Shown here: one piece after another, positions 11,096 through 62,674 of the stretch
How the letters are laid out: each line of letters opens with the position of its first letter
How positions within the stretch are numbered: position 1 is the first letter of the stretch
Virus record (IMG/VR): IMGVR_UViG_3300036821_000136
Span: 44,247 to 108,246 of that record
DNA from: a virus
Lineage: Duplodnaviria > Caudoviricetes
Strand: one strand, 5' to 3'
DNA: 64,000 nt
Made by a program: the position numbers and the translations under genes
Notes under the pieces: model-generated
The model's database searches: none
Told to the model about the DNA's origin: nothing
What the model saw: the letters and a program-made list of their open reading frames with translations, nothing else

Positions 11096-11196
11096 GGCGT
11101 GTGCGCCGCCTTCCGGTAGGAGTCTGGGCAGCAGCACTCTAACAGGCGGTAACCGGATCGTTCCGCAGCGCAACGACGCGATTCGCGATTCGCGAT

Positions 11197-22022: not shown

Positions 22023-22823
22023 CTACGCCGTCAGGTCGAAGCTGACCTCGAGGACCCGGCCGGCCAGCGTGACCTGCTCAAGGTAGGACCAGCAGCGCCC
22101 GCCGGGGTCGAACCACATCCACACGGTGGCCGACACGTAGCCGCCCGGGGCCAGGCCGAGCAGCGGCCCCTCCCGGCCGTCGTCGAGGATCGGGCGGGCC
22201 TCGTAGGCGGTGCGGCCGCGGGCGAACGTGACCGGCTTGTGCGGCCACCGGCCGGGGTCGGCGGTGCGCTGCTCGATCAGCGGCAGCGCGCCGCGCGGGT
22301 CGGCCAGCGGCACGGCGTGCAGCAGCTCCGGGCACGGCACCGACAGCTCGCCGGGGAACCACTCGACCGACAGCGCGAACGGCCGCCCGCCGTCCTCGTC
22401 GTCGCCGTCGGTCTCGAAGTAGCGCTGCTCGCGGCGCACCACCGGCGCGACCCCGTTGCGCGGCGCGGGCTCCAGGTCCAGCAGCGGGATCAGCCGCGGG
22501 TAGACGGCCGCGGCGTCGACGTAGTCCGCGGCGGTGACCTCGGTGCGCTCGGCGGGCGGCGGCCCGGTCCAGGACAGCCGCTGCACCGGCCCGTGCTTGT
22601 ACCGGCCGGCCTGCACGTAGGAGCCGGACGGGTCGGTGCGGACCAGCCCGTCGGTGCGCAGCCAGGCGACGGCGCGGTTGGCGGTCGCCGGGCTGACGCC
22701 GTGGGCGTCGGCCAGCGCGCGCACCGACGGCAGCCGGATCCCGTCGGCGACGCGGCCGGTGGTGATGTCGGCGGCCAGTTCGTCGTGCAGCTGCTCGGCG
22801 GGCGACCGCAGGTCGATGGGCAT
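22023..22823 (-). CDS. GntR-family regulator (KorSA/TraR-like) with UTRA-like C-terminus
   Basis: RLPSVRALADAHGVSPATANRAVAWLRTDGLV; divergent from the transfer genes. Confidence 0.85.
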   Translation of the reverse strand: MPIDLRSPAEQLHDELAADITTGRVADGIRLPSVRALADAHGVSPATANRAVAWLRTDGLVRTDPSGSYVQAGRYKHGPVQRLSWTGPPPAERTEVTAADYVDAAAVYPRLIPLLDLEPAPRNGVAPVVRREQRYFETDGDDEDGGRPFALSVEWFPGELSVPCPELLHAVPLADPRGALPLIEQRTADPGRWPHKPVTFARGRTAYEARPILDDGREGPLLGLAPGGYVSATVWMWFDPGGRCWSYLEQVTLAGRVLEVSFDLTA

Positions 22824-22892
22824 GGCGGGGCCTTTCCGGTAGTCGTCCTCCCGGCGATCGTACGCCGTCGCGTGACACGACCGCGACAGTGT

Positions 22893-22906
22893 GAGACGAT
22901 CGTCTC
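22893..22906. promoter_or_regulatory. 14-bp palindrome GAGACGATCGTCTC, candidate GntR operator
   Basis: Perfect palindrome between gntR and the transfer operon. Confidence 0.55.
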
Positions 22907-22944
22907 TGACTCGTATCGCCCGTATCACCGGAGGAGCCCCGACA

Positions 22945-23598
22945 ATGTCAGCCACAGATACAACCGGCGCGACGCCCGCCGAGCTGCTGTGGGCAGCGTG
23001 GCGCGGCCGCGTGTTCGCCGGCCTGGCGGTCGCGGTGTGTCTCACCGTGCCCGCCGCGTTCTTCGAGTCATTCCACGGCCTGATCGAGTGGTGCCAGGGC
23101 AACGGGCTGGGCGGCGTCTACGCCTGGTTCGCCCCGGCGATGGTCGACGTGTTCATTTTGGCCGGCGAGACCGTGCTGCTGCTGGCCATCATGGAAAGCT
23201 GGGACTGGCCCGCCAAGGCCGCCGGCTGGGCCGCGATCGGCGCCGGGCTGGCCGTGTCCGTGGCCGGCAACGTCGGCCGCTCCGGCTGGCACGTGCCGCT
23301 GGAGCGGATGGCCACCTTCGCCGTCGCGCCGCTCGCGCTGGCCGGCCTGACCGCCCTGTTCCTGCTCGTCGCCAAGCGGCTCATGCACCCGCGTGTCCGC
23401 GACCGCGTCGACGCGAACGAGGACCTGGTGATCGCGCTGCTGCGGTACCGCGACCACGCGGAGGCGGGCACGGTGCCGACCTTCGCCGAGGTGATGGCCG
23501 ACCTGAACTGCGGGCAGCCCCGCGCCCGCCGTATCCGCGCGTGCCTGCCCGTGCTCACCCCGGTCCTGGCGACCCTGAACGGGACGGTGCACCCGTGA
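22945..23598 (+). CDS. DUF2637/SpdA-like membrane protein
   Basis: ESFHGL...AWFAPAMVD, four TM segments, C-terminal L.CGQPRARRIR. Confidence 0.75.
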   Translation: MSATDTTGATPAELLWAAWRGRVFAGLAVAVCLTVPAAFFESFHGLIEWCQGNGLGGVYAWFAPAMVDVFILAGETVLLLAIMESWDWPAKAAGWAAIGAGLAVSVAGNVGRSGWHVPLERMATFAVAPLALAGLTALFLLVAKRLMHPRVRDRVDANEDLVIALLRYRDHAEAGTVPTFAEVMADLNCGQPRARRIRACLPVLTPVLATLNGTVHP

Positions 23599-24008
23599 CC
23601 CGCACCGCGCGCCGGCCGCTGGCCCGGGTGATCGGCGACGTCGCTGACCGTCACCGCGGCGCGGTCCGCCTCGTCGTGCTCGCCGTCGTGGCCGCCGGCG
23701 GGGCCGCCTGGCACTGGCACACCTGGCTGCCGCTCGTCTTCCTCGCCGGGGCGCTGACCGCCGAGGGCGGCCGGCTGGCCGCCGAGGCGTGGGGCTGGCA
23801 GCGGGCCGGCGGCAAGGCCGAGCTGCGGCGGCTGCGCCGCCACGGCGGGCCCGCCACCATGCGCGAGCTGCACCGGCACCTGTCGCTGCGCGCCGCCCGC
23901 CGCGCCGCCCGGGCCGCGCGCCCGTCCCTGGCCGCCCTGCGGCTCGCGGCGATCCCCGCGCACCAGGCGGGCATCGCGCTGGGCACCGCGAGGAGGTCAG
24001 CGCGATGA
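23595..24008 (+). CDS. membrane protein resembling the N-terminal anchor of a coupling protein
   Basis: Two TM segments plus G.A..REL.RHLS..A.R....RPSL...G..LG. Confidence 0.65.
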   Translation: MTRTARRPLARVIGDVADRHRGAVRLVVLAVVAAGGAAWHWHTWLPLVFLAGALTAEGGRLAAEAWGWQRAGGKAELRRLRRHGGPATMRELHRHLSLRAARRAARAARPSLAALRLAAIPAHQAGIALGTARRSAR

Positions 24009-25492
24009 GGCGTCCCTGGCAGTACGTCCGCCCCAGCGTCGACGTGTTCGGGTCGTTCCGCAGCGCGTATGCGGTGATCGGCCCGCCGAACAGCGGCAAG
24101 ACCGCGTTCCTGGCCCGCGCCGCGCTGACCGCGCCCGGGGCGCTGCTCACGTTCTCGACCAACTACGAGCTGGCCCGCGACACCGCCGCCGCCCGGATCC
24201 GCGAGGACCGCGGCCTGGGCCCGGTGTGGTGGGTCAACCCCGGCCGCGCCGGCGGGTTCCCGTCCAACTGCGGCTACAGCCCGCTGGCCGGCTGCGAGTC
24301 GCCTGGCATGGCGATGGAGGCCGCCGGGGCGCTGATGGCCGCCGCGCCGCACGACAAGAAGGACGCGCACTGGGACGCCCTGTCCAAGAGGTTCCTGCAG
24401 TACCTGATGCACGCCGCGGCGCTGCACCCCGACCGGCCCGACATCCGGATCGTGCGGCAGTGGGCCGCCGACCCGGCCAACCCCGACGAGCCGATGGAGG
24501 TGCTGGACCGGTGGGGCACCCAGGACTGGGCGCAGCAGCTCGACGACCTGGCCGCGCAGTGCCGCACCGACATGGACGGGAAGACCGCCACGGCGGTCGC
24601 CGGCGGCGTCCTCGCCGCCCTGGCCTGGCTCGATGACCCGGGGCTGGCGGTGCTGGCCTGCCCGCCGCCCGGATATGAGTTCGACGCCCGCGCGTTCCTG
24701 CGCGAGCGGGGCACCGTCTACGCGATCGGCGCCGACTCCGAGCACAACCCGCAGACCCCGTTCCTGTCGTGCTTCTGCACGTACGTGTGGAACGAGGCGA
24801 ACCGGGCCGCGCAGGACCCCCGTGAGGCGTGCGCGGCCCGGGGCAAGCTCGACCCGCCGCTGATGATCGTCGGCGACGAGCCGGGCAACTCCTGCCTGGT
24901 GCCCTACGACAAGTGGGCGTCGACGGCCGGCGGCCGCGGCGTCTGCCTGATCACCGGCTGGCAGTCCGACGCGCAGATGCCGATGCGGTGGGGCGACCAC
25001 GCCGCCCGGGTGATGCTCGACGCGTTCGGCGGGCTGGTCGTGTTCGGCGGGGTCAAGGGCGACCTGGCCGCGCTGGCGTCCTCGTGGGCCGCCGACAAGC
25101 CGACCTGGCACAAGGGCGAGCGCGGCGCGAAGGTGCTGGCCAGCGCGCCCACCTTCAGCCCGGCGGTGCTCGGCACCCTGAAGGACTACCGGGCGATGGT
25201 CAAGTACGGCAGGCGGCGCGCGTTCCTGGCCGACATGCCCGACGTCCGCCGCCACCCGTGGTACCGCGAGGTCACCGCGGCCGACTTCCCGTCCGACCCG
25301 GTGTGGGAACCCGCCGCGCTGGCCGCCCGCACCAACCGCCGCCGCGTCGCCGCCGCCCGCGGCGGCCTGACCGCCGTCACCGACCACGGCCGCACCGCCG
25401 TCACCGACCAAGGAGCACCGTCATGGCCACCACAACTAAGCAGCAGGCGGGCCCTCCCGGGCGGACACCGTCCCGGCGGGCGCGCCGGCTAG
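24005..25492 (+). CDS. VirD4/TraG-like type IV coupling ATPase
   Basis: Walker A GPPNSGKT; Walker B MIVGDE; GGRGV...WQS.AQ..RWG. Confidence 0.8.
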   Translation: MRRPWQYVRPSVDVFGSFRSAYAVIGPPNSGKTAFLARAALTAPGALLTFSTNYELARDTAAARIREDRGLGPVWWVNPGRAGGFPSNCGYSPLAGCESPGMAMEAAGALMAAAPHDKKDAHWDALSKRFLQYLMHAAALHPDRPDIRIVRQWAADPANPDEPMEVLDRWGTQDWAQQLDDLAAQCRTDMDGKTATAVAGGVLAALAWLDDPGLAVLACPPPGYEFDARAFLRERGTVYAIGADSEHNPQTPFLSCFCTYVWNEANRAAQDPREACAARGKLDPPLMIVGDEPGNSCLVPYDKWASTAGGRGVCLITGWQSDAQMPMRWGDHAARVMLDAFGGLVVFGGVKGDLAALASSWAADKPTWHKGERGAKVLASAPTFSPAVLGTLKDYRAMVKYGRRRAFLADMPDVRRHPWYREVTAADFPSDPVWEPAALAARTNRRRVAAARGGLTAVTDHGRTAVTDQGAPSWPPQLSSRRALPGGHRPGGRAG

Positions 25493-26253
25493 CGAAGCTG
25501 ATCGGGCACCGCAAGGTCCGCCGCGACAAGCAGCTGCTGCACCGCCTGATGCAGGAGCTGCAGCGGGAGCTCAAGCGGGCCCGCAGCCCGTGGTCGCGGC
25601 TGCGCGCCAAGGCCCGCGAGGCGATGGACCGCCGCCGCAACCCCTACACCCGCGCCGACACCGGCCGGTCCTACCGCACCAGCGAGGCCGCCATGCGCGA
25701 CCAGGGCGGCGGCGGCCGCCAGGCCAGGCAGCCGCAGGGCACGGGCCGCCAGGACCGGCAGCAGGCAGCTGCGGGCCGCCACCGCGCCCCCGGGGGACCC
25801 CGTGAGCACGTCGGCGGCAGTACCCTGCGGACCCGCCGGAACCAGGCCCGCCGCCGCCGCCTGGCGGGCCGCTCGGGCTGGGCACGGCGCGGCTGGGACC
25901 GCGGGTGGCACGGCGCCGCCCAGCGCCAGGCCAACGTCCGCGCCTGGGGCGCCCGCCGCCGCGCCGCCTACCAGCGCGCCGCGGAGCCCGGGATCCGCCG
26001 CGCCGAGGTCCGCGCCGACGCCCGCGCCAACGGGATGGACAGGCGCCGCGCCGCCGCGCACGCCAACCGGGTGCACCCCGGCGCGGTCCGCCGCCGGTGG
26101 CGGTCCTCACGCGGCCCGGCCCGCGCGACCGCCGCCCGCGGCCAGGCCGTGCGCGCCGCCTCGTACGCCGGCCGCCGCGCCCCCCGGATGCGCCGGGTCC
26201 GCCGTCCCCGCGTGGCGCGGATGCCCCGCCTGATCGGCCGCGGCGGCCGGTAA
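25423..26253 (+). CDS. highly basic Arg-rich protein
   Basis: AAGGAG RBS; TAA stop; fills the gap in the operon. Confidence 0.6.
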   Translation: MATTTKQQAGPPGRTPSRRARRLAKLIGHRKVRRDKQLLHRLMQELQRELKRARSPWSRLRAKAREAMDRRRNPYTRADTGRSYRTSEAAMRDQGGGGRQARQPQGTGRQDRQQAAAGRHRAPGGPREHVGGSTLRTRRNQARRRRLAGRSGWARRGWDRGWHGAAQRQANVRAWGARRRAAYQRAAEPGIRRAEVRADARANGMDRRRAAAHANRVHPGAVRRRWRSSRGPARATAARGQAVRAASYAGRRAPRMRRVRRPRVARMPRLIGRGGR

Positions 26254-26295
26254 CACACCGTATTTGTGCAGGTCAGCGACCCGAAGGAGAGACCG

Positions 26296-27024
26296 ATGAC
26301 CACCACCCGAGAAGCCGCCCGCGAGGAGGCATGGAGCCGCGACGACGCGCTGTCCGCGTTCCTGGCCGTCACCGCCCGCCCTGACCCCGACGACGGCACC
26401 AGCAGCCTGATCGTCCTCGACGACGCGCAGCTGGCCCGGCTGCGCCCGGTCGTCGAGCGGGCCCGCCGCGTCGGCTACTGCCTGCAGTGCGACCCCGGCT
26501 TCCCCGAGGTGTGGGCGGCCGTCGGCGACGGCTGGCCGCACCTGGCCAGCTCCCACGGCAAGGTCCGGTCCCGGCGCCGCACGCTGACCCTGCGGCCGAT
26601 GAACCGGCCGCCCGGCGACGGCGTCGTCAAGTACGAGCAGACCGACCTCTGCTTCGGCGGCCGCCAGGTCACCAAGCCGGTCCACCAGATCCTGCTGCTG
26701 GCCTTCGAGGGCACCCGCCCGTCCGACAAGCACGAGTCCTGCCACGGCGACGACGTGGCCAACCACAACCACTGGACCAACCTGCGCTACGGCCTCGACA
26801 ACGGCCTGGACAAGGCGCGGCAGGCCGCGTTCCTCAGCCCGGGCGCGGCCGAGCGCCGGTCGGCCGCCGCCCGCCGCGCGCAGCGGGCCGGCCGGCAGCG
26901 CCTCGACGACCGCCGCGCCGCCGACCGCGCAACACACCGTGACGATGACACGCAGCGTAGCGGCCTGGCGAAGGTCACCGGCTGGCTTGCCCGTCACGGA
27001 ATGTGGCGACGTGGGGACCGGTGA
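26296..27024 (+). CDS. NUMOD4/HNH endonuclease-like protein
   Basis: E.W..V....SSHGKVRS...VHQILLLAF.G...CH.D....N...NLRYG. Confidence 0.7.
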   Translation: MTTTREAAREEAWSRDDALSAFLAVTARPDPDDGTSSLIVLDDAQLARLRPVVERARRVGYCLQCDPGFPEVWAAVGDGWPHLASSHGKVRSRRRTLTLRPMNRPPGDGVVKYEQTDLCFGGRQVTKPVHQILLLAFEGTRPSDKHESCHGDDVANHNHWTNLRYGLDNGLDKARQAAFLSPGAAERRSAAARRAQRAGRQRLDDRRAADRATHRDDDTQRSGLAKVTGWLARHGMWRRGDR

Positions 27025-27255
27025 CAGGCGGTGAGCGGAACCGATGACAGACCGATGACACGTTTCCGCAGGTCAACGGCCTGCACGCTGCGTAACCGCG
27101 GAACTCGGAAGCCGGCACGCAAATTCGCCGCCTTCGGCGGCGCCTTCCGAGTTAGCCGACCGGTGACAGCGCGTGACGAACACGGAGCGTAGCCGCTCGC
27201 CCGGCGGTGACAGCGAGTGACGACGATGGGAGGCCACCCAGCGTGACGATGACCG
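27018..27255 (+). repeat. cluster of G(T/A)GAC-core direct repeats plus nested hairpin
   Basis: CCGGTGACAG, CCGATGACAG, CCGATGACAC, CCGGTGACAG, GCGGTGACAG and others; stem AACTCGGAAG/CTTCCGAGTT. Confidence 0.55.
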
Positions 27256-29249
27256 GGACGACCCCGCTGCCCGTGACCGGCTTCCACCCGACGCACGGCT
27301 GGATCGCCGTCGCGGTCGCCGCGCTGTGCGTCGGGCTGGTCGTGAACGTGGTGGCGGGGCGGGTGCGGCGCGCCAACGGCAAGGAGGGCGGCGCGACGGC
27401 GGTCGGGCGGCTGCTGGCCGGGATCGACCTGCACCACGGCCGCGATCACTGGACGAACGCGGGGTGGCTGACGCGGCCGGGAGAGGTCACCCTCGTCGGC
27501 GCCGGGACCAAGCGGGGGCGGGCGTCGTGGTGGCAGCACCAGAACTACCTGTTCCGGTCGGTGGTCCGCTCAGGGTGGCTGCCCGTGGCCGCTGCGTGGT
27601 TCCTGGCCGGGGCGGAGGCGGCCTGTGCGGCCGCGCTGGCGCTCGGGCTGTTCGCGTTCTACGTCAGGACCCGCACCCGCCCTGGGTGGCTGTCCGCGGC
27701 GTGGATCCCGCGGGTCCGCGGCGAGCACGACGCCGGCCGGGTCGGGCCGCTGGCTGAGGCGCTGGCCACCGCGACCAACGTCAGCAGCCGGGCGGTCGCC
27801 CGCGGGCTGCACTGGCACCCCGATTACGCCCTGTCACAGCCGGGCGATGAGGTGCTGAGCTGGGATATCCCGCCGGCGTTCAAGGCGGCGGGCGGCGAGC
27901 GGCGCACCGTCGAGGACCTGATCGAGTCGCGGGTCGGGTTCGGGCTGCAGGCGTCGTGGCGGACGTCGCAGGTGCCGCCGGTGCTGGTGATGAGCCGGGC
28001 CCGGTCGCTGCCGCCGATCGTGTTCCTGGCCGACGTGCTGGACCGGGTCGACGCGCTGCCGGCGTCCAAGACCGCGATCGGCCTGGATGACCTCGACCGG
28101 CTGGTCTGCTGGGACTGGGGGTGCGAGACCCCGCACGGCGTGATGAACGCCGGGTCGCGGCACGGCAAGAGCGAGACCAACAAGTGCCTGATCTGCCAGA
28201 TCCTGCGCAAGGGCGGGTCGGTCACCGCGATCGACGTCAAGGAGATCAGTTTCCAGGGCCTCGAGGGACTGCCCGGGTTCACCCTGGTCAACGACCCCGG
28301 CGACATCCCGGCGATGTGGGAGGCGATCGCCGACTTCGCCGGCGAGCTGAACGTGCGGCGCGCCGAACGGGCGGCCGGGACGGCAACCAGCTGGCCGGTC
28401 AAGCTGCTGATCATCGAGGAGGCCAACCAGTTCGGCGAGATGACCGACGACTGCTGGGAGGACCTGCCCTGCGTCGACGACATGGAGCCCGAGGAGCGCG
28501 AGCTGCTGCGCGGCACCGAGCTGTGGAAGACCAAGGGCGCCAAGAAGACCCCGCGCGTGTGGCGGCACGTCAAGGCGGTCGCCTGGCAGGGCGCCGCGTT
28601 CAACATGCACGTGCTCGTCGACGGCCAGGACATGAAGGATTCGGTCGTCAAGGGGCTGCGCAACAGCCTCGGGATGCGGCTGCTCGGCGGGTACCTGCCG
28701 CAGCAGTGGAAGTTCCTCGTCGGCACCACCCCGGTCCCCGCCGCGCCGGCGGTCAAGGGCCGGTTCTGCCTGGTGATCGGCAACCAGCAGACGTGGACGC
28801 AGGCGATCCTCGCCGACACCGACCCCGACGTCAGCTCGCGGATCTGGCGCGACTTCGCGCTCAACGGCCGGCCCGACCCCGGCCCCGGCGGCGCCGGTGA
28901 CAGCCACCGACGACAATTCACCGACGACAGCGTCCCGCCGCTGGTCAGCGCTACAAACGGCGACGGCCCGTCACCGGTGACCGGCGACACGGCGATCCCC
29001 ATGACGCTGCTGTCCATCGTGCGGATCTTCCTGGCCCCCGACGCCGGCGACGACGACCAGAAGAAGCTGGCGGCCGCGCTCAAGCAGGACCGGCAGCGGC
29101 ACGACCGCGGCGCGCTGCCGCCCGGGCTGATCTTCCCCGGCCAGGTCGGCACCGACGGGCAGGCCGAGCTGTTCCTGCCCCACCAGGTGATCAAGTTCAA
29201 CACCGCGCGGCGCGGCCAGCCCGCCGCCAGAAACGGAGGACCGTCATGA
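27243..29249 (+). CDS. FtsK/SpoIIIE-like plasmid transfer translocase (Tra/TraB type)
   Basis: N-terminal TM segments; AGSRHGKS, AIDVK, LLIIEEAN; C-terminal FP..VG..G..LF domain. Confidence 0.75.
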   Translation: MTMTGTTPLPVTGFHPTHGWIAVAVAALCVGLVVNVVAGRVRRANGKEGGATAVGRLLAGIDLHHGRDHWTNAGWLTRPGEVTLVGAGTKRGRASWWQHQNYLFRSVVRSGWLPVAAAWFLAGAEAACAAALALGLFAFYVRTRTRPGWLSAAWIPRVRGEHDAGRVGPLAEALATATNVSSRAVARGLHWHPDYALSQPGDEVLSWDIPPAFKAAGGERRTVEDLIESRVGFGLQASWRTSQVPPVLVMSRARSLPPIVFLADVLDRVDALPASKTAIGLDDLDRLVCWDWGCETPHGVMNAGSRHGKSETNKCLICQILRKGGSVTAIDVKEISFQGLEGLPGFTLVNDPGDIPAMWEAIADFAGELNVRRAERAAGTATSWPVKLLIIEEANQFGEMTDDCWEDLPCVDDMEPEERELLRGTELWKTKGAKKTPRVWRHVKAVAWQGAAFNMHVLVDGQDMKDSVVKGLRNSLGMRLLGGYLPQQWKFLVGTTPVPAAPAVKGRFCLVIGNQQTWTQAILADTDPDVSSRIWRDFALNGRPDPGPGGAGDSHRRQFTDDSVPPLVSATNGDGPSPVTGDTAIPMTLLSIVRIFLAPDAGDDDQKKLAAALKQDRQRHDRGALPPGLIFPGQVGTDGQAELFLPHQVIKFNTARRGQPAARNGGPS

Positions 29250-29578
29250 CGCAGCTGACCGAGCGGCTGTCCCTGTTCTGGGCGCGGCACCGCCCGTCGC
29301 GGGTGCCGGGCCGGTGGCGGCACGGCCCGGCCGCCACCCAGGTCCACAACTGGCGCAGCGCCCGCACCATCGCCCGCGGCCGGGTGCCCTACTGGCAGCG
29401 GGCCACCGCCGCCGCCGGGTCGCGGACCCCGGTCTACCGCAGCCGGATCAACCGGGCGACCGGCCGCCCGCACCGCGACGACGCGATGATGCGCCGCAGC
29501 GGCGACCAGGCGCTCGCCCGGACCCGGGACCGGCACACGCCCCGGCCGCGCCGGGTGGGCGGCCGGGGCGGACGGTGA
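29246..29578 (+). CDS. basic hypothetical protein
   Basis: GGAGG RBS, ATGA overlap. Confidence 0.65.
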   Translation: MTQLTERLSLFWARHRPSRVPGRWRHGPAATQVHNWRSARTIARGRVPYWQRATAAAGSRTPVYRSRINRATGRPHRDDAMMRRSGDQALARTRDRHTPRPRRVGGRGGR

Positions 29579-29592
29579 GATGATTACGGGCC

Positions 29593-29892
29593 ATGACCAG
29601 ATTGCTACTGCTGGTAGCCGGCTACGGCGGCGGCATCCTGCTGACCTGGCGCGGCGACTGGCGGCACGGCCTGGCGATCTTCGCGCTCACCGCCGCCCTG
29701 CACTTCCTGTCCGTGCTGGCCTACCCCTGGCACCGCTGCTGGGCATGCCGCGGCCGCGGCGTGTTCTGGCTCGGCCGCAACCACGGCGACTGCGTGGTGT
29801 GCGGCAACCGCCGCCGCTACCCCCGCACCGGCGCCCGGATCCTGACCCCCGGCCGCGCCCGCAGAATGACCCAGCGAAGGAGAGGACGATGA
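29593..29892 (+). CDS. membrane protein with DnaJ-like CxxCxGxG zinc finger, of a type seen next to actinomycete tra genes
   Basis: YPWHRCWACRGRG...CVVCG..R.GAR. Confidence 0.7.
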   Translation: MTRLLLLVAGYGGGILLTWRGDWRHGLAIFALTAALHFLSVLAYPWHRCWACRGRGVFWLGRNHGDCVVCGNRRRYPRTGARILTPGRARRMTQRRRGR

Positions 29893-30299
29893 CCCACCCC
29901 GCGCACTACGAAATCATCGGCGGCCCCGCGCCGTACCCCGACTCGGCGGCCGCGCTCAGGGCGGCGGCTACCCGCCGTGACCAGGTCACGGCCAGGCAGG
30001 CGGCGGACATGCGCCGGCTATCCGCGGACACGCCCGGTAACGACCCCGACCCCGCCCGGCGGCAGCGGATGGCCCGCGCCTTCCTGCAGGCGGTCGGCGA
30101 AAGCCTCGACGAGGCGTGGCCCGAGCTGATCGCCCGCGCCTGCATATACGCGGGCATGGGCGCGCCGGTCCCGGGCGCCGACGAGTACGTCGACATGCTC
30201 GCCGCGGCGCTCGGCGTCCCGGCCGACGAGGCGCCGTTCGAGCTCGACCAGCTGATCCCCGGCGTGCCGGACACGGCCAGGCACGAGGTGACGTCATGA
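29889..30299 (+). CDS. hypothetical protein
   Basis: GAAGGAGAGG RBS, ATGA overlap. Confidence 0.7.
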   Translation: MTHPAHYEIIGGPAPYPDSAAALRAAATRRDQVTARQAADMRRLSADTPGNDPDPARRQRMARAFLQAVGESLDEAWPELIARACIYAGMGAPVPGADEYVDMLAAALGVPADEAPFELDQLIPGVPDTARHEVTS

Positions 30300-30727
30300 G
30301 GGTCCGGATCGGCACCAGCGGGCTGCTGCTGCTGATCGCCCTCGCCGTGATCATCCTGATCGCCGGGCTGCGCTGGCTCGGCTCCAACGCCGCCGCGATC
30401 CGCGCCGGGGTCGGCACCGGCGTGCTGGTCCTCGTCGTCGCCGGGGTGCTCGGCCTGGCCGTGCACCTGCTGCTGCAGGCGCACCGCGCCGAGCGGCTGC
30501 CCTGGCAGCGGCCCGTCCCGCCGCCCGTCCCGCCGGCCACGATGACCGCCGAGGTGCTGCCCGCCGCCGCGGCCGAGCTGACCGCCCCGGCGCCGGTCGC
30601 CGCGATCGCGCCGGCCCCGGCCGGGGTCACTGTCGTCGTGTCGACCGCGGAGGCGGCCGAGGCGTTCGCCCGCGGCCTGCACGTCCCGCCGCCGGCTGGC
30701 GGGCAGGGCAGCGACGGGAGCCCGTGA
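30296..30727 (+). CDS. membrane protein
   Basis: Two TM segments; ATGA overlap. Confidence 0.7.
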   Translation: MRVRIGTSGLLLLIALAVIILIAGLRWLGSNAAAIRAGVGTGVLVLVVAGVLGLAVHLLLQAHRAERLPWQRPVPPPVPPATMTAEVLPAAAAELTAPAPVAAIAPAPAGVTVVVSTAEAAEAFARGLHVPPPAGGQGSDGSP

Positions 30728-31551
30728 CGACGGCGCGGACCCGGCCGGCGGCGACAGCCACTGCCACATCGCCGGCCGGGTCCAGCTGGGACGTCACCCC
30801 GGCGGCCTTCCGTGGGGCCGGGGGGCACCACCGGACGCTACCGGGCGCCGCGCCGCCGCGCCGCCCGAACCGGGGAACTGATGGCGTTTTTGTGACGGCC
30901 GCCCCGGCACCTGCCCCGGGCACTGATCCTGATGGCGCTTTGACGCAAAAACGCCATAGGAACGCGCACGCGGGCAGCGAGCGGCCCGCCGAGCCGCTGA
31001 CCCCCGCCGAGGCCGCCGCGCTGCTCGCCGCCGCGTCCCGCGCCTCCTGGAGCGGGATCCGCGACCGCGCCATGATCACCGTGCTGTACCGGTCGGGGCT
31101 GCGGATCAGCGAGCTGCTCGGCCTGCGGCTGGCCGACCTCGACACCGCGGCGCGGACGCTGCGGCTTCGGCACACCAAATCCGGCCGGCCGCAGATGCGC
31201 GGCTACCACCCCGGCGCCGACGACGCCCTGGAGCTGTGGCTGCAGCTGCGCCGGCCGATGGGTCCCGGGCCGCTGTTCTGCACCCGGGCGGGCGGCCCGG
31301 TCTGGCCGCAGCAGGTCCGCGCGACGCTGGCCCGCCTCGCCGGCCGCGCCGGGATCGCCAAGGCGGTCCGGCCGCACGGGCTGCGGCACACCCTGGCCGT
31401 CGAGCTGCTGCGCGCCGGGGAGGACATCGCCGTGATCTCCAAGATCCTGGGGCACTCGTCGATCGCCACCACGGCGCGCTACCTTGATCACCTGACCAAC
31501 AGCGCCGCGCTCACCAGGCTCGCCGCGGCCGACCTGCCGCCCCTGGAGTGA
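30724..31551 (+). CDS. tyrosine recombinase, essentially catalytic domain only (true start may be TTG 30940)
   Basis: RSGLRISE, TKSG, HGLRH, LGHSS...TARY. Confidence 0.9.
   Translation: MTTARTRPAATATATSPAGSSWDVTPAAFRGAGGHHRTLPGAAPPRRPNRGTDGVFVTAAPAPAPGTDPDGALTQKRHRNAHAGSERPAEPLTPAEAAALLAAASRASWSGIRDRAMITVLYRSGLRISELLGLRLADLDTAARTLRLRHTKSGRPQMRGYHPGADDALELWLQLRRPMGPGPLFCTRAGGPVWPQQVRATLARLAGRAGIAKAVRPHGLRHTLAVELLRAGEDIAVISKILGHSSIATTARYLDHLTNSAALTRLAAADLPPLE
30878..30959. other. putative dif/loxP-like recombination site plus upstream half-site
   Basis: ATGGCGCTTT-GACGCA-AAAACGCCAT (30932-30957); CTGATGGCGTTTTTG at 30878. Confidence 0.6.
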
Positions 31552-31757: not shown

Positions 31758-32048
31758 ATGCCTGATATCTCACTGTCCATCGTCCGCGCCGGCAGCCCGC
31801 CGCCGTGGGAGGACATCGCCACCGGCGGCCTCCCGTTCACCGATCTCGGCGAGTCGTGGAAGGTGGCCGTCCTCGAGCGCGGCATGCGCTCGGGTGACCC
31901 GTCGGTCGCGCTGCGCCTGGACCTGCCCGACGGGCGGATCCTGATCGCGCAGACCAGCGTGGCCGCGTGGATCGCCGCCACCGCCGCGATGCGCGGCGCG
32001 TTCCCCGAGGCGTTCGCCGGCGGGCCGCTCGCCGCCGGCCAGCCATGA
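31758..32048 (+). CDS. phage hypothetical protein
   Basis: GMRSGDPSVALRLDLPDG; high GC3. Confidence 0.7.
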   Translation: MPDISLSIVRAGSPPPWEDIATGGLPFTDLGESWKVAVLERGMRSGDPSVALRLDLPDGRILIAQTSVAAWIAATAAMRGAFPEAFAGGPLAAGQP

Positions 32049-32275
32049 CCGACAGGCACGCCGCGTACATCGTGGTGCTGGGCAGCGACATCCGCGACGA
32101 TGACGCCGAGCCCGTGCTGACCGCCCTGCGGATGGTCAAGGGCGTGGCGTCCGTGGAGCCCGTCATCGCCGATTACCCGTTCGCGGTGGCCCGCACCCGG
32201 CGTGACTCCGCGTGGCGGGATGCGCTGTACGGGCTGGCCCGTCAGGGGCCGCCCGAGACGGGAGACGGTGGCTAG
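32045..32275 (+). CDS. phage hypothetical protein
   Basis: ATGA overlap; MTDR...DIRDDDAE...MVKGV. Confidence 0.75.
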   Translation: MTDRHAAYIVVLGSDIRDDDAEPVLTALRMVKGVASVEPVIADYPFAVARTRRDSAWRDALYGLARQGPPETGDGG

Positions 32276-32639
32276 CCGCCGCGACCGGCGGGCCCTGGCA
32301 GCGTTCCGCGCGCTGCTGGACCGCCGCCCTACCTGCCCGCCGCCCGCCCGCACGGCGGGCCGCGCCAGCGACGGGCTGCCCGCGCACTGGCGGGCCTGCG
32401 CCGGGCTGTACGCGGCGGCCGCGCCGCGCGCCCTGGCCGCCGGCCCGCTGCTGGCCGGGATGATGCTCGACCAGGCCGCCCGCGACCGGTACGCCGCCGC
32501 GCGGCTGGAGGAGTGGCAGCGGGTCATGTTCCCGGTGCCTGCGGTGCGTGACCGGGCGGGCGCGGTGCGGTACGGTGGGCGGGCCCGGCCGCGTTTGGGG
32601 GACGGTCCGCCGTTCGTGTCGGCCGGGTGCAAGGAATGA
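32268..32639 (+). CDS. hypothetical protein
   Basis: GGGAG RBS; overlaps the previous stop. Confidence 0.5.
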   Translation: MASRRDRRALAAFRALLDRRPTCPPPARTAGRASDGLPAHWRACAGLYAAAAPRALAAGPLLAGMMLDQAARDRYAAARLEEWQRVMFPVPAVRDRAGAVRYGGRARPRLGDGPPFVSAGCKE

Positions 32640-35601: not shown

Positions 35602-37299
35602 TCAGTTGACGTTGATCGGGAAGCCGCCGTTGAAGATCATCGCGGTCGCGCCGGTGATGGTCGGGATGGTGAAGTCCCCGTTGGTGTTGGCCGTGGCGTA
35701 CCAGTTGCCGACCGCCGTCGCGCCGAACGAGGACATCGGGATGCCGGTGGGGGACAGCGGCCGGTAGCCGGCCGGCAGCGTGAACAGCGTCCCGCCCACG
35801 ATCGCGCCGCCGCCGCTCTTGTTGATCGTGCCGACGATCCACACGATGCCCTCGGACAGCATCCGGTAGGACACCTTGATCCAGTTCGCCTGGTTGACGT
35901 AGGCGGAGGTCAGCGTGGCGGTGTGCCAGCCCTCCTGCTGCGGCGGGTTGGACGCCGACCCGCCGGTGCCCGGCACCTTGGCGTACATCTGGCCGACGTT
36001 GTAGATGCTGACGCCGTTCCAGTCAGCGGACAGCATCAGGTACGAGCCGCTGCCGACCGAGGGCGCCTGGTTGTAGATGATCTCGCAGCTGGCCGAGCTG
36101 GTCCCGTCGGAGGAGTTGAGCTCCAGCCCCACATAGTCGTCGTGCCCGGCGGTGTTCTTGCGCGGCCCCTGCAGCAGCATCTGGGCGAAGCTGCTGTTGT
36201 ACACGCCCTGCAGGTAGCCGTCGATCACGCTGGCCTGGTTGAAGTTCACCGCGTAGACGCCCTGGCCGGAGCTGGTGGTGATCCGCACCTGCACGTTCGG
36301 CGCGGTCCCGGCGATCAGGGTCGCGCCCTGGATGGTGGTCCCGTCGACGATCCCGGCGTACAGGATCCCGGCGGCCATCTGCGCAGCGGTGATCGTGGCC
36401 GCCTGGATCTGCGCCGCGGTGATCGTGTTCGCGGCGATCTGCGTCGCCGTGATCGTGTTGGCCACCATCCGGTCGCCGGTGATCGACGCGGCCGCGATCT
36501 GCGCCGCGGTGATCGTGTTCGCCGCGATCAGCGCCGCGGTGATCGCGTTGGCGGAGATCGCCTGCGTGCCGAAGGTGTAGGGGGTCCAGCCGCTGCTGGT
36601 CTGATACTGCGACAGCGCGTTGCCCGCGCTGGTGTTGAACCACAGGTCGCCGGGGTTCGGCGAGGCCGGCGCCGACGGGGCGAAGCTGACCGCGACGCCG
36701 CCGGCGGAGATGGTGAACCCGAGCTGCGCCTGCATGATCGACCCGGCCGGGATCGCCTGCGCGGCGGTGATCGGGGTCGCCGACGCGGCGGTCGACGGCG
36801 CGGAGACGGCGCCGGAGGAGTTGACCGCGACCAGCGCGGCCCAGTATTGGGTGCCCGCGGTCAGCCCGGGCACGACGACCACGCCGGGCGCGATCATGGT
36901 CCGCTGCAGCGTGGCCGCCGACGGGGTGAACCCGGCCCCCGACGGTGACACGTGCACCTGCACGCAGATGAAGTCGGACAGCGGCGGCGTGCCGCCGAGC
37001 TGCCCGTCCCACCCGACGACCAGCCCGCCGATCGCCGCGCTGACCGTCGGCGTGTCCGGCGCCGCCGGCGGCGGCGCGTTCATGTCCACGACGGTGTTGG
37101 TGCCGTCGGGCTGCGCGCCGATCAGCTGCCGGGTGGTGCCCGCCCCGTCGGTGACGGTCAGCGCTCCGCCGTCGATCGAGGAGTAGCCGAGCTGCGCGGT
37201 GCGCTGCCCGGCCTCCAGCTGGACGATCCGCTTCTGCAGCGCCGCGATCTCGCGGCCGAGCGCGGCGACCGACGCCGCGGTGATCGTGTCCAGCGTCAA
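35602..37299 (-). CDS. minor tail/fibre protein with ITAAQIAANT repeats
   Basis: FnIII-like segment, about seven 10-aa repeats, C-terminal FTLPAGYRP. Confidence 0.8.
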   Translation of the reverse strand: MTLDTITAASVAALGREIAALQKRIVQLEAGQRTAQLGYSSIDGGALTVTDGAGTTRQLIGAQPDGTNTVVDMNAPPPAAPDTPTVSAAIGGLVVGWDGQLGGTPPLSDFICVQVHVSPSGAGFTPSAATLQRTMIAPGVVVVPGLTAGTQYWAALVAVNSSGAVSAPSTAASATPITAAQAIPAGSIMQAQLGFTISAGGVAVSFAPSAPASPNPGDLWFNTSAGNALSQYQTSSGWTPYTFGTQAISANAITAALIAANTITAAQIAAASITGDRMVANTITATQIAANTITAAQIQAATITAAQMAAGILYAGIVDGTTIQGATLIAGTAPNVQVRITTSSGQGVYAVNFNQASVIDGYLQGVYNSSFAQMLLQGPRKNTAGHDDYVGLELNSSDGTSSASCEIIYNQAPSVGSGSYLMLSADWNGVSIYNVGQMYAKVPGTGGSASNPPQQEGWHTATLTSAYVNQANWIKVSYRMLSEGIVWIVGTINKSGGGAIVGGTLFTLPAGYRPLSPTGIPMSSFGATAVGNWYATANTNGDFTIPTITGATAMIFNGGFPINVN

Positions 37300-37312
37300 C
37301 CCGCCCTCCCGG

Positions 37313-38497
37313 TCAGTAGTAGGTCGGGGCGTAGCTGAACGAGTCCGACCGTGCCGTGGTCAGCGTCTGGATACCGGTCGCCGGGTTGAGGGTGATCGCG
37401 GTCACCCGGTGCCATATCTGCTGCCCGCCGAGCCAGCCCGTCGCGAACTGCAGCAGGATGTCATCGCCCACGCTGACCGACCCCAGCGGCGCGTTCGGGT
37501 GGTTGGCGATGGTGACCGACGCGGCGCCGCCCATGTTCTGCCGGGCGGCGAGCTCCCGCGACAGCAGCGGCTTGAGCGCCCCGGCGGCGGTGATGCCCTG
37601 GTCCTGGTAGACCCCGAACCGGCGCAGCCGCCCGTCGTCGACCGCGACCTGCCCCTGGATCGTCGTCGACCCCGACCCGGCGCCCGCCCCCGCGATCCCG
37701 TTGGCGTAGGTCGACCCGTCGCGGGTCAGCGGCACCACCGCGGCCATGTTCTCGTCCTCGACGAACCGCAGGTCGGTCCGGCGGGTCCCGGCGCGGGGCA
37801 CCGCGAACGACAGCGTGTGGCTGACCTGCTCGCCGCCCGCCGCCCAGGCGTGGCTCTCGGTCATGTCGGCCGGGATGGTCCCGGCGAGGCGGGTGATCTC
37901 CTGGCCCACGTCGGTCAGGTTCCACGGCGCCATCTCCCACGGCTGCGCCGCGACCGCCGCGACGGTGCCGTGCGCCGCCACGGCGGGGGTGCCGAGCCGG
38001 GCGGCGCTGTGGGTGGCCGCGTCGACGGCCAGGTGCAGGTTGCCGGACGGGAACGACTGCAGGTGCGCCCACAGGAACCGGATCCCGTCGAGCGGGTCCA
38101 TGTTGACCCGCTGCGTGTCGGGGCCGGTGTAGGGCTGCCCGGGCGGGTAGCCGCGGAACCCGGTCGCCGTCACCGCCCAGGTCGGCCCGTTGAAATCGGA
38201 GTGCGTGTGGATGCCGCCCCACCGGATCTGCCCGTCGGCGACCGCGTAGATCAGGGTCGACCACTCGTCCAGCAGCGGCCGCCCGTCGGCGGCGGCCGCC
38301 AGCGCGATCGCCGGGGCGATGTCGGCGGTCAGGGAGTCGGCGGTCAGGTCCCACGTCATCGCCACGTTCTCCAGCGGCAGCCCGGCCCGGTCCAGCCACG
38401 CGCCGGTGACCGCCCGCTGCGCGTAGTACACCCACGACGACGGCCGCACCAGCCGCAGATCCGGCACCGCCAGCGGCGCCGCGGCGAGGCTGCTCAT
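37313..38497 (-). CDS. minor tail protein
   Basis: Position in the operon; DGQIRWGGI; SVGDDI. Confidence 0.75.
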   Translation of the reverse strand: MSSLAAAPLAVPDLRLVRPSSWVYYAQRAVTGAWLDRAGLPLENVAMTWDLTADSLTADIAPAIALAAAADGRPLLDEWSTLIYAVADGQIRWGGIHTHSDFNGPTWAVTATGFRGYPPGQPYTGPDTQRVNMDPLDGIRFLWAHLQSFPSGNLHLAVDAATHSAARLGTPAVAAHGTVAAVAAQPWEMAPWNLTDVGQEITRLAGTIPADMTESHAWAAGGEQVSHTLSFAVPRAGTRRTDLRFVEDENMAAVVPLTRDGSTYANGIAGAGAGSGSTTIQGQVAVDDGRLRRFGVYQDQGITAAGALKPLLSRELAARQNMGGAASVTIANHPNAPLGSVSVGDDILLQFATGWLGGQQIWHRVTAITLNPATGIQTLTTARSDSFSYAPTYY

Positions 38498-41213: not shown

Positions 41214-44200
41214 TCACGGGCGGGAGAACGCGCCCATCCTGGCCTTCCGCAGCGTGAACGCCAGCTCCCGCATGGCGGCGGCCGCGTCGCCGGTGCCGTA
41301 GTAGTTGGTGTGGTAGGAGCCGATCAGCGGCGCCTGCCCGCCGCCGTCGCCGCTGCCGGGCCGGTCCGGGACGACCCACTCGGTGCCGGACTCGCCGAAC
41401 CGGTACAGCTTGCCGCTCAGCGCGCCGATCCCGCTGACCGGCTCGCTGACCGGCCCGCCGTTGGCATAGCCGTAGTAGGTGCCGCTGGTCAGCCCGGAGA
41501 TCGCCGACGGGCTGCGGTAGATCGCGGCGATGTAGCGGGCCGCGGAAGCCAGGTTGTCGACCGGGTTCCAGATGTCGCCGTGCCCGGCCAGCGCGTACTG
41601 CAGGAACGTGGCGGGGAGCATCTGCGCGACGCCCTCGGCGTGCTGGCCCAGCACCGAGATCGGGTTCTCCGCGCGGGCGTTGCCGCCGGACTCCTTGCCG
41701 ACCAGGATGCCCATCAGGCTCGCCCAGGAGGCCGGTTCCCCGGCCAGCGCGAGTGCGGTGCTGATCCACTGCCCGACCGTGCCGCTGACGGCGCCGCCGA
41801 ACCCGCTGGGCGGGGTGCCGGTCCACAGCAGCGGCATGTCGTTGATGCCCATCAGCTGCGGGCCCATCCCGCCGCCCTGGCTGATGACCATCGCCGCGTT
41901 CTTGACGATCGCCACGTGCCCGGGGTCGGGGCCGCCGGCCGGGCTGTGGTAGAACGCCAGCCCGCCGGTCTCCGGCGCGCCGCGCTTGACCCACGCGCCC
42001 TGCGCCTCGCTGGTGCGCGGCGCGTGGATCCCGAAGTGGTTGTAAATCGCCTGCGTGAACCCCGAGCAGTCGCAGCCGCTCAGCGACGTGCCCCCCCAGG
42101 TGTACGGGATTTTCCCGATGAACGTGGCGGCATAGTTGGCGATGTCGGCGCCCGACCCGCTGCCCCCCGACCGGCCCATGATCCAGTCGATCAGCTTGCC
42201 GATCAGCTCCTTGGGGATCTGCAGCAGGATCTGGTCGAGCAGCTTGCCCTTCTCGGCGCCGCCGCTGCCCATGTGGGTGAAGTCGGCGAACGCGTTGACG
42301 AACGCCGTCCGGTTCCCGGTGGCGAACGCGGCGGTGAGCTTGGCGACGTCCAGCGCCTTGTCGACCACGCCGGTGACGGTGTGCGCGACCGCCCCGGCCG
42401 CGCTGGTCGCGGCGTGGGCGACGCTGCTGGCGGCGTGGGCGGCCAGGTGCGTGATCCCGCTGAACAGGCCGCCGCCGCCGCCGGGGTTCGGCGGGGCCTG
42501 GCCGGTGCGGTGCGGCACCCCGCCGCCCTGGTAGCCGGGCACCCCGACCGCGGCGAACGCGCCGGCCAGCACCCGGGAGTGGTCGGCGCTCACGATGGTC
42601 TCGTCGCGGGAGACCCGCACCAGCACGTCGTCGGCCGTCGGCGTCGTGCCGGCCGTGATCCGGCCGCCGCCGGCGAACCCGGCGCTGATCTTCTTGATCG
42701 GCGACCCCAGCCCGACGTGGGAGGTGATCCAGTCGAACGCGCCGATCAGCCCGTCCAGCACGGTGTTGATCACCCACCGCACCGGCGAGGCGACGGTGTT
42801 CTGCAGGTTGTTCCACCAGCGGCCGATGGCCGCCACCGAGGTCTGGAAGACGGCGGGCAGCGTGCGGGTGAAGAAGTTGGCGACGTCGGTGCCGAACACC
42901 TGGTGGATCCAGTTGAGCAAGCCCTGCAGCCCGCTGGTGAACGGCTGCCACAGCCGGGAGCGGGCCAGCCCGATCGCCCGGTCCCACACTCCCGGCAGCG
43001 TGCGGGTGAAGAACCCCAGCACGTCGGTGTAGAACACCTGGTGGATCCAGGCCAGCTCGGCGCGCCACCCGGCCCGCCACCGGTTCCACAGCCGGGTCAC
43101 GGTCGCCGCCCAGAACCGGTCCCAGATCGCGGGGACGGTCTTGGTGAAGAAGTTGGCCAGGTCGGTGCCGAATATCTGGTGGAACCAGCCGAGCAGCGCC
43201 GCCGCGCCGGCCCGGATGGTGGCCCAGTGCTTGGCGATCAGCACCACGGCCAGGCCGACCGGGCCGGTCAGGATGCCGAGCACCAGCGGCCAGTTGGCCC
43301 GCAGCCAGTTGTAGGTCGCCTGGTAGGCGGCGTCGAGCGCGTGCCAGGTCGCCATCCACGCCGACGCGATCCACGCCGCCGCGGCCCGCAGCACGTCCCA
43401 CATGTCGTGCACCACGTCGCGGAACGCCTTGCTGTGCTGGTAGGCGTAGATCAGCCCGATGACCAGCGCGGCGATCGCCGCGATGATCAGCCCGATCGGG
43501 TTGGCGTCCAGCTCGAGGTTGAGCGCCGCCTGCGCGAACTTCCACGCATCGGTGGCCAGCTTGGCGACCTTGACGTAGGCGGTGTACACCAGCAGCCCGC
43601 CGCCGATCGCCAGGATCGCCCAGCGCAGCAGGTCGGCGGCCTTGCTCCCGCCGGTGAACCAGCCGATCACCGCCGCCAGCGGCCCGACCATCTTGGCCAG
43701 CAGCCCGATCAGCCCGTTGAACGCGGGCAGCAGCTTCTGCCCGACCTCCTCCTCCAGGCTGTGCAGGGTGACCTGGAGCCGCGCCATCGGGGTCGCCGCG
43801 GCGGCCGCGGTGCCGCCGTAGGACTTGCCGAGCGCGTCGAGGATGACCTTCTGCGCCTTCAGCGTGTCACCGCTCTTGGTGAACGCTTTGACCTGGTCCT
43901 GCTGCTGGGCGGTCAGCACGACGCCGAACCGGCGCAGCGCCGTCATCCCCTTGGCCGGGTCGTCGAGGGCCTTGCCTAGCGCCTTGGTGGTCTGCGACAG
44001 CGACCCCGCCGAGACGACCCCGCCGTGCATCGCGGCGGTCAGGTCGATGGCGGCCTGGCTGGCCCGGTTGAAAACGTCGTTGCCCTTGCCGACCTCGTTG
44101 CGCACGTCGGTGAACCGCAGCAGCATCGTCGACGCCTGCTCGATCGACAGCTTGTCGACGGCGTTGCGGCTGGACTCGCTGGCCGCCAGCTTGTCGATAT

Positions 44201-62378: not shown

Positions 62379-62674
62379 GGGCGGGTGTCGCCGATCCGGA
62401 CGCGGCCGGACGGCAGCACCACCCGCTCGGCGCCGATGGTGATCCGCGCCCACGCGAAGTAGGCGCCCGCCGGGTAGGCCACGTCGCCGCCGGTGCCGAC
62501 CAGCAGGCCGACCTCGCCGTCGATCCACGCGCCGGTCACGTAGTCGTCGTCGTCGGGCTCGCTGCCGTCGTCGGGCACCAGGCACGCCTCGGGCACCGTC
62601 GTGGTCGGGTCGACGCCGGGCGGGGAGTCGATCGGGATCAGCATGTAGGGCCGCGAGCTGACCGGGATGTACAC
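62375..62674 (-). CDS. hypothetical virion-associated protein
   Basis: Own RBS GGGAGGGG before the GTG; GTGA overlap with terminase. Confidence 0.65.
   Translation of the reverse strand: MYIPVSSRPYMLIPIDSPPGVDPTTTVPEACLVPDDGSEPDDDDYVTGAWIDGEVGLLVGTGGDVAYPAGAYFAWARITIGAERVVLPSGRVRIGDTRP

Follow-up and report, generated by a model that had tools for sequence, protein, structure and literature searches.

The DNA considered here (the window) makes up the final 64 kb of the IMG/VR record IMGVR_UViG_3300036821_000136 (G000; 108,246 bp), which holds the genome of a tailed phage. At the junction between the early and late arms of this genome lies a module of genes (22023-31551; positions are those of the window unless G000 is named) that encodes a VirD4-like ATPase and an FtsK/TcpA-fold ATPase, carries an array of short repeats and resembles the transfer loci of actinomycete plasmids. 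The module is its own transcription unit, and a hairpin region follows the last early gene at its left edge. The GntR-family regulator, DUF2637-like membrane protein, VirD4-like ATPase, FtsK-like ATPase, zinc-finger membrane protein and short recombinase that a first-pass annotation had named were all found where it had placed them or close by. Genes were called by GC content at third codon positions (GC3), because the GC content of the window is ~75%; the host is presumably a very GC-rich actinomycete. The record is labelled linear in IMG/VR and has a CheckV completeness of 97%. Its final 126 bp (window 63875-64000) are identical to G000 17-142, so the genome is self-closing (circular or terminally redundant), ~108.1 kb long and without host flanks, and the linear label stems from a 16-nt offset at the record ends.

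The motor gene (27243-29249, plus strand) encodes a membrane-anchored ATPase of 668 aa whose FtsK/TcpA fold was assigned from an AlphaFold2 model (predicted local distance difference test score, pLDDT, 76) and Foldseek. The protein has no Pfam, NCBIfam or PHROG match. It consists of two N-terminal transmembrane (TM) helices that anchor it in the membrane, an FtsK-like RecA-fold domain with Walker A (AGSRHGKS) and Walker B (LLIIEE) motifs, and a small C-terminal helix-wing domain. The best structural match of the motor domain is TcpA of the Clostridium perfringens plasmid pCW3 (6o1w; Foldseek 8.8e-14, TM-score 0.61 on the target), followed by the FtsK motor (6t8b, 3.7e-12), and TcpA is also the sole PDB sequence match of the motor family profile (E 0.03). 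The C-terminal 87 aa are modelled with a pLDDT of 90 and have weak matches only (Foldseek E>=0.8, VIA Z<=4.6), nearly all of them to DNA-binding winged helices of the MerR, Xis or TerS type; judged from the model, it is plausible that this domain reads DNA. About 40 homologues of the motor occur in a large protein collection, nearly all of them unnamed metagenomic proteins, and one carries the FtsK_gamma domain (PF09397). Across the family the catalytic residues are invariant, at a mean column identity of 46%. The closest relative, P0003 (90% identical), is encoded on an 18.5-kb contig. Several homologues contain inteins near the P-loop (L004/L030 at 10438-11447, L028 at 2540-3594, L013 and the phage G002), with LAGLIDADG and intein-splicing Pfam domains found on P0028, P0037 and P0039; the copy in the window has no intein.

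Immediately upstream of the motor gene lies an array of repeats with a GTGAC core (26937-27285, plus strand), made up of 8-mers and variants that include GTGAC-N5-GTGAC pairs. Six co-oriented CGRTGACA 8-mers fall within 270 bp (at 26943, 27019, 27042, 27053, 27161 and 27205), which is half of the 12 copies in the whole window, where 4.8 would be expected. GTGAC/GTCAC density reaches its genome-wide maximum in the array, with 10 per 350 bp where the mean is 1.16. Conservation extends to 21 non-redundant homologous loci: within 460 bp spanning the motor start, GTGAC/GTCAC is found 107 times, whereas its density in the rest of each locus predicts 29.9 (Poisson, 1e-27). Same-strand neighbours spaced by exactly 10 bp account for 10 of the 74 pairs inside these regions and for 2 of the 521 outside, and occur in 10 of 22 loci. 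As a positive control, a k-mer count on plasmid pSN22 returned eight CCGCACA(G/C)C units adjoining traB, in agreement with the published description of clt regions as direct 8-bp repeats bound by TraB (PMC4447253). By analogy with clt, the GTGAC array is a candidate cis-acting site of the motor.

Between the two ATPase genes lies the gene for an HNH endonuclease of 242 aa (26296-27024, plus strand; phrog_1492 1.1e-13, phrog_959 and phrog_59). When it is aligned with seven homologues, NUMOD4-like and HNH_3-like motifs can be recognized, and His and Asn residues are conserved. Homologues are found upstream of the motor gene in nine loci (L003, L005, L007, L009, L010, L011, L012, L014 and L016), which correspond to about six independent ones, as L003 and L010 are the same and L009 near-identical, and L005, L011 and L014 are near-identical.

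The second ATPase (24005-25492, plus strand; 495 aa) is a soluble coupling ATPase of the VirD4/TraG type (PF12696, 2.5e-8), with a TraG-D_C/TrwB-type nucleotide-binding domain, Walker A motif GPPNSGKT at residues 26-33 and Walker B motif LMIVGDE. PF10412, PF02534 and PF12696 are found on its homologues, which go by the name VirD4. It is ~30% identical to actinobacterial plasmid type IV coupling proteins encoded next to MobF relaxases, and its closest relative (P0043, 80% identical) lies on an 88-kb contig. The protein has no TM helix: no hydrophobic segment was seen, and the Walker A motif starts as early as residue 26. The gene upstream, which overlaps it by 4 nt, encodes a 137-aa protein (23595-24008, plus strand) in which a two-helix hydrophobic hairpin can be recognized by eye, with no 19-residue window above the hydropathy threshold; in locus L007 a homologue of this open reading frame (ORF) likewise stands immediately upstream of the VirD4-like gene. 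Since the ATPase lacks its own TM helix, overlaps a two-TM ORF and keeps this partner in L007, the 137-aa protein is probably its detached membrane anchor. A complex prediction for motor residues 175-560 with VirD4-like residues 1-440 gave a score of 0.00, which is no verdict either way. The 3' end of the VirD4-like gene is overlapped by 70 nt by an ORF for a basic protein of 276 aa (25423-26253, plus strand), composed mainly of arginine, alanine and glycine, with a GC3 of 0.94-1.0 and no family match. A reading of this ORF as the shadow of a minus-strand gene was rejected, because the corresponding minus frame is interrupted by stops. The arginine-rich protein may coat DNA.

The regulator gene (22023-22823, minus strand) diverges from the module operon across 121 bp. 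It encodes a GntR-family protein of 266 aa (Pfam GntR, 6e-10), its ATG at 22823 and its ribosome-binding site (RBS) being read from the sequence, and its helix-turn-helix (HTH) motif is 41% identical to pSN22 TraR over 44 aa. The divergent control region (22824-22944) contains a perfect 14-bp palindrome, GAGACGATCGTCTC (22893-22906), and a single GTGACA (22872-22877); the palindrome is a candidate operator. The first gene of the operon (22945-23598, plus strand) encodes a multi-pass membrane protein of 217 aa with hydrophobic segments. It matches Pfam DUF2637 (PF10935) with E=0.004 and 17.5 bits, under the 22.8 cut-off, and phrog_733 with 5.9e-7; in the ESM Atlas, DUF2637 clusters make up 28 of its 30 matches (score 0.94). 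Pairwise BLAST against the DUF2637 proteins of the plasmids pRL2 and pPR2 was not significant, and a literature search on DUF2637 returned nothing relevant.

Downstream of the motor gene, an open frame at 29246-29578 (plus strand) could encode a basic protein of 110 aa, its coding status being less certain; a 47-aa stretch is 53% identical to one beside the VirD4-like gene in L021. In phage G002, the gene directly after the motor (L041 589-918), which matches this ORF in position, encodes a protein with an S13-like H2TH DNA-binding domain (PF22525, 5e-26). There follow a zinc-ribbon membrane protein of 99 aa (29593-29892, plus strand) with one hydrophobic helix and a CxxC-x17-CxxC pattern, an acidic protein of 136 aa without a family match (29889-30299, plus strand), whose start is preceded by the phage RBS word, and a 143-aa protein without a family match (30296-30727, plus strand), which has two TM helices and a Pro/Ala-rich tail. 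The last gene, probably 30940-31551 (plus strand), encodes a short tyrosine recombinase of ~203 aa that comprises the catalytic domain only (PF00589, 2.6e-34), and XerC, XerD and invertase models match it over that part alone. It is the single PF00589 match in the genome and the sole recombinase found; a genome search returned no serine recombinase or resolvase and no second tyrosine recombinase.

Pattern scans for the motor returned two IMG/VR contigs, 29 metagenome loci and one genome locus, the last being a 7-kb contig of a Streptosporangiaceae metagenome-assembled genome (MAG). Among 401 sampled Actinomycetes genomes, one match was close and two were distant, and in 50,697 deposited phage genomes neither the motor nor the VirD4-like ATPase has a match. 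Both IMG/VR contigs are tailed phages that carry the module: G002 (100% complete at 128 kb, with a portal gene and direct terminal repeats) and G001 (78 kb, with portal and tape measure genes). The G002 module contains a divergent GntR gene, a VirD4-like ATPase, a motor with an intein and a DUF2637-like protein, and no HNH homologue was detected in G002; that of G001 contains GntR, HNH and motor genes and is without a VirD4-like gene. GntR genes flank the module in both. Compared with G000 (tblastn, 1e-5), G001 and G002 have in common the module proteins, a ParB_N-like protein and one structural-region protein, and nothing else. Three otherwise dissimilar phages share the module, which makes it a recurring phage cassette. 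The first-pass annotation had regarded a coupling protein and a translocase together as unusual, but the pairing is not unique: the VirD4-like gene accompanies the motor in four of the six homologous loci with enough upstream sequence, and the plasmid pELF2 offers a published analogue. A VirD4-like gene and the motor gene occur together in L004/L030, L021 and L027, and L007 keeps the order two-TM ORF, VirD4-like, HNH and motor. The core of the cassette is the regulator and the motor, with the VirD4-like gene a frequent accessory and the HNH gene the usual companion of the motor.

Outside metagenomes, the motor has relatives only on actinomycete plasmids. With tblastn (E down to 2e-26), 59 such plasmids encode homologues of 23-30% identity, 56 of them from Streptomyces and the others from Planobispora, Nocardiopsis and Pseudonocardia. 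The homologues are annotated as pRL2-11 or DUF87, in single cases as 'Tra protein' or 'FtsK', and some of these plasmids, of 15-25 kb, have no other candidate translocase. The motor family profile aligns with pRL2-11 over 415 columns covering the N-terminal region and the ATPase domain (hhalign, 99.5%, E 3e-23). The layout agrees as well: pRL2 (Streptomyces sp. 44414, NC_007927) has a divergent GntR gene, a DUF2637 gene, the ATPase gene and small genes that include a zinc-binding one, and pPR2 (Planobispora rosea, NC_019291) likewise has DUF2637 followed by the ATPase. Genes for a VirD4-like ATPase, an HNH protein and a tyrosine recombinase are, however, missing beside the motor in pRL2-11-type plasmid loci, and the phage zinc-ribbon protein, unlike the zinc protein of pRL2, does not match NCBIfam QRL_CxxC_CxxC. 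A search on pRL2 found no paper on the function of pRL2-11.

The TraB/clt/TraR(KorA)/Spd system of Streptomyces plasmids (pSVH1, pSN22, pIJ101; PMC4447253) is similar in design: its motor is membrane-associated, has an FtsK fold and is ~670 aa long, its GntR regulator is encoded divergently, its small membrane proteins are translationally coupled, and a cluster of direct 8-bp repeats adjoins the motor gene. The arrangement in pSN22 (divergent TraR, then traA, traB and spd) is mirrored in the phage module. There are differences between the two systems. The phage repeats lie upstream of the motor gene, whereas the clt repeats lie downstream; the phage module adds a VirD4-like ATPase and an HNH protein; and its carrier is a tailed phage. 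The earlier reading as a conjugation-type module is supported, the block being coherent, with a layout like that of the pRL2 and pPR2 loci and a motor homologous to pRL2-11, but the label 'TraB-type' fails at the level of sequence. Homologues of Spd on actinophages have been proposed to spread phage DNA (PMC4447253).

Two further systems are comparable. The linear plasmid pELF2 of the Firmicute Enterococcus faecium (TraD/TraC/TraG; PMC13492992) combines a soluble VirD4/FtsK-type ATPase, TraD, with a two-TM ATPase, TraC, both of which are essential for transfer (PMC13492992). Like the phage module, it has a second ATPase without a recognisable family, a single operon with membrane proteins and no relaxase. 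The likeness noted is one of design, and TraC is treated as a VirB4 analogue (PMC13492992), whereas the phage ATPase is FtsK/TcpA-like by fold. The second system is that of pCW3, which differs from the phage module in that TcpA is only 14-15% identical to the motor and that genes of the VirB4-like, VirB6-like and peptidoglycan hydrolase types, present in the Tcp locus, were not seen in the phage module; for VirB4, general family scans of the module proteins gave no match, and no genome-wide search was made. Like the motor, TcpA has two N-terminal TM helices, and it is nearer to FtsK than to VirD4.

To our knowledge, phages and conjugative elements are held to be exclusive routes of transfer, with few exceptions such as pZL12 of Streptomyces and the streptococcal Φ1207.3. 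The plasmid-phage pZL12 reportedly joins a tailed phage and a transfer locus in one actinomycete element, which makes it a precedent for a 'conjugative phage-plasmid'; together with pSLE1 it is said to carry ParA/ParB and repA. These elements differ from the present phage in their ParA/ParB, as no AAA_31-type ParA was found in its genome, and neither name occurs in the 59 plasmid records in which the motor has a homologue. A plasmid-type Rep was not recognised among the phage proteins scanned, and no dedicated or genome-wide Rep search was made. Both pZL12 and pSLE1 (Zhong et al., 2010) are cited in PMC4487206 as plasmid-phages of Streptomyces.

Several lines of evidence address the origin of the module. 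Its tetranucleotide usage correlates with that of the genome at 0.9932, close to the mean of all 9.6-kb segments (0.9950, sd 0.0026), so a compositionally foreign module was rejected; the segment that departs most from the genome holds the tail-fibre and lysis genes. The RBS word GAAGGAGAG has 14 exact copies in the window, 12 of them in the early arms and two in the module (26283 and 29876), where such sites had been reported before; at one mismatch or fewer there are 17 matches against 6.1 expected. No direct repeats flanking the module rose above the GC-rich background, in line with the absence of att repeats stated earlier, and no tRNA was found. The module thus differs from an actinomycete integrative and conjugative element (AICE) in having the catalytic domain of a recombinase only, no flanking repeats, no tRNA and a native composition. 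Of the other absences claimed for it, that of a full-length integrase holds, and that of a relaxase holds for TrwC and PF03432 only. Native composition, the phage RBS word, the lack of att-like repeats and an own transcription unit make an AICE insertion or a chimeric assembly unlikely, and with the self-closing record they bear out the first view of the module as native to the phage. Since the module is common to phages that otherwise share almost nothing, 'native' here means a recurrent phage cassette and not a lineage-specific trait.

The function that best accommodates these features, tentatively and at somewhat less than an even chance, is conjugation-like, virion-free movement of phage DNA. 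The cassette would be a self-contained, GntR-gated DNA translocation system of the actinomycete plasmid-transfer type and an integral part of the phage genome. Its motor would be a hexameric-type FtsK/TcpA-fold core on a two-helix membrane anchor, and the C-terminal helix-wing domain would read the GTGAC array as TraB reads clt. The DUF2637-type, small membrane and zinc-ribbon proteins might form or gate the channel, while the VirD4-like protein would act as a split coupling ATPase, the arginine-rich protein as a DNA coat and the HNH protein as a nicking-type endonuclease. GntR would keep the operon off in a control of the kil-kor type, and the short tyrosine recombinase could resolve multimers or recircularise the transferred DNA. 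As a result, phage DNA would cross septa, or pass from one cell or hypha to its neighbour, by being pumped and with no need of virions. Gene content, folds, homology to plasmid loci, repeat conservation, recurrence in other phages and native composition are established, whereas the repeat-binding protein, the DNA substrate, the direction of transport and cell-to-cell transfer itself are inferred.

A number of observations weigh against this interpretation. The motor ATPase clade, including pRL2-11 itself, is functionally uncharacterised; against pSN22 TraB, the motor profile reaches an hhalign value of only 0.4%, over the P-loop alone, and PF01580 (FtsK_SpoIIIE) has no match anywhere in the genome at E<=0.1. 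The C-terminal domain resembles DNA-binding winged helices just weakly (Z<=4.6). The expectation behind the repeat enrichment came from whole-locus density and not from other intergenic DNA, and an operator or iteron role is conceivable for the GTGAC repeats, since the GntR control region contains one GTGACA copy. What lies downstream of the motor gene differs from one homologous locus to another, without conservation. The relaxases TrwC (PF08751) and PF03432 are absent genome-wide, other relaxase families not having been searched at that scale, and besides the missing AAA_31-type ParA no plasmid maintenance genes turned up. A mycelial lifestyle of the host is assumed, because the sole genome match is the Streptosporangiaceae MAG contig. 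Finally, the HNH gene and the inteins of homologues fit the spread of a selfish cassette.

Among the alternatives, handling of DNA inside the cell is unlikely, though several features suit it. The module would be a private FtsK/Xer-type system for clearing, segregating or resolving phage or plasmid-prophage DNA at septa, for instance so that spores or daughter compartments receive the genome, and the repeats would orient or load the motor. Activation of Xer recombination by FtsK is established (PMC3130261, PMC2965235), and the phage combines an FtsK fold, a genome that closes as a circle and a recombinase, the only one it has, that resembles the catalytic domains of XerC and XerD. Yet this recombinase is not conserved beside the motor elsewhere, no AAA_31-type ParA accompanies it, and a VirD4-type coupling ATPase has no part in dimer resolution. 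The closest non-metagenomic relatives of the motor, moreover, lie on small plasmids in tra/spd-like loci.

It is distinctly improbable that the cassette is merely selfish, with a homing HNH endonuclease dragging the ATPase gene between co-infecting phages and the cassette maintained by its own mobility, for little or no transmission benefit. Homing would leave unexplained why a 668-aa ATPase is retained with invariant catalytic residues, and in G002 the GntR, DUF2637-like and VirD4-like genes accompany the motor where no HNH gene was detected. The P-loop inteins of G002, L028 and further homologues can be read both ways, as signs of selfish spread and as marks of functional importance, since inteins usually sit in genes that matter. 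What remains for a homing origin are the NUMOD4/HNH_3-type motifs, typical of free-standing phage homing endonucleases, the placement of the HNH gene just ahead of the motor gene in six or more independent loci, and the fact that the module is almost the sole thing common to three dissimilar phages.

Exclusion or competition has a low probability too. The early/late junction is a frequent site of accessory and exclusion genes, and repressor-controlled, membrane-anchored ATPases encoded there might block or hijack the entry of rival DNA or piggy-back on the transfer of a resident plasmid instead of exporting the phage genome on their own; a VirD4-like protein without a relaxase of its own is what would be expected of a component that meets foreign machinery. 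However, PADLOC returned no defence family match for ten module proteins, the cassette is like whole plasmid transfer loci, and conserved cis repeats in the phage's own DNA point to an action on self-DNA.

Very little probability attaches to protein secretion, in which the motor would export phage proteins like the type VII ATPases EccC and EssC. Their ATPase domains are among the Foldseek matches of the motor (2e-9 to 1e-6), pRL2-11 weakly matches EccCb in NCBIfam, and the two-TM topology is shared, but TcpA and FtsK score higher, the motor has one ATPase domain and not three, one homologue carries FtsK-gamma, and conserved DNA repeats, a VirD4-type ATPase and an HNH nuclease accompany it. 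A recently inserted AICE or other integrative and conjugative element (ICE), or a chimeric assembly, unrelated to the phage, is largely refuted despite gene content like that of plasmid and ICE transfer loci, an own regulator and the hairpin terminator region at the left of the module: it would have to be reconciled with the missing flanking repeats, tRNA and full-length integrase, ordinary tetranucleotide usage, the phage RBS word inside the module, a self-closing contig, the same gene set within a phage genome with terminal repeats (G002) and a motor clade present in just one of the 401 sampled Actinomycetes genomes.

Virion-free movement of phage DNA draws on components and logic that are known from plasmids, with one conjugative plasmid-phage precedent in Streptomyces. 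The novelty lies in this particular cassette, which recurs in three or more dissimilar tailed phages, in the conservation of its repeat array and in the link to the pRL2-11 ATPases. The wider proposal, that large uncultivated tailed phages of actinomycetes have a second, virion-independent mode of transmission through a minimal conjugation apparatus, encoded by a cassette that moves between unrelated phages, is possible but doubtful. If true, phages could do without lysis when they spread or persist in hosts that are mycelial or densely packed, and estimates of host range and of gene flow in soil would widen. The motor, the 8-mer array and the regulator would then offer a compact, testable system for DNA export of the FtsK type, and for the pRL2-11 ATPases of actinomycete plasmids, which are uncharacterised, the phage module is a first clue to function.

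The rest of the genome is that of a tailed phage with complete structural and packaging genes. After the recombinase, three small ORFs without a family match, called by GC3 (31758-32639, plus strand), end the plus-strand unit and converge with the late operon, which closes in a terminator hairpin (33048-33015). The late arm is encoded on the minus strand from 62,378 down to 33,061 and includes the large terminase (TerL), a Mu-like portal and the capsid protein, a 1163-aa ORF (41214-44705) assigned to the tape measure from size and position alone, a minor tail protein, a tail fibre and a GH25 endolysin. Outside the window, the same record encodes a TerS-like protein, a DnaB-type helicase, an N6 methylase and a YqaJ/RecT pair. 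Pfam matches for candidate repressor or immunity genes are generic HTH only. A ParB_N protein (G000 9962-10576, minus strand; 24-26 bits, just under the Pfam cut-off) could be a ParB of the partition or of the nuclease type; a homologue lies ~6 kb from the motor gene in phage G001. The structural-region protein shared with G002, the sole non-module protein that these two genomes have in common at tblastn 1e-5, has 225 aa (47731-48408, minus strand) and no PHROG match, and is 51% identical to G002 37255-37707. Past the terminase gene, the window from 62000 to 64000 has a GC content of 82%; some of its blocks resemble the initial 1.2 kb of the record, at 73-88% similarity, and this repeated GC-rich DNA flanking the closure point may be a packaging or end region.

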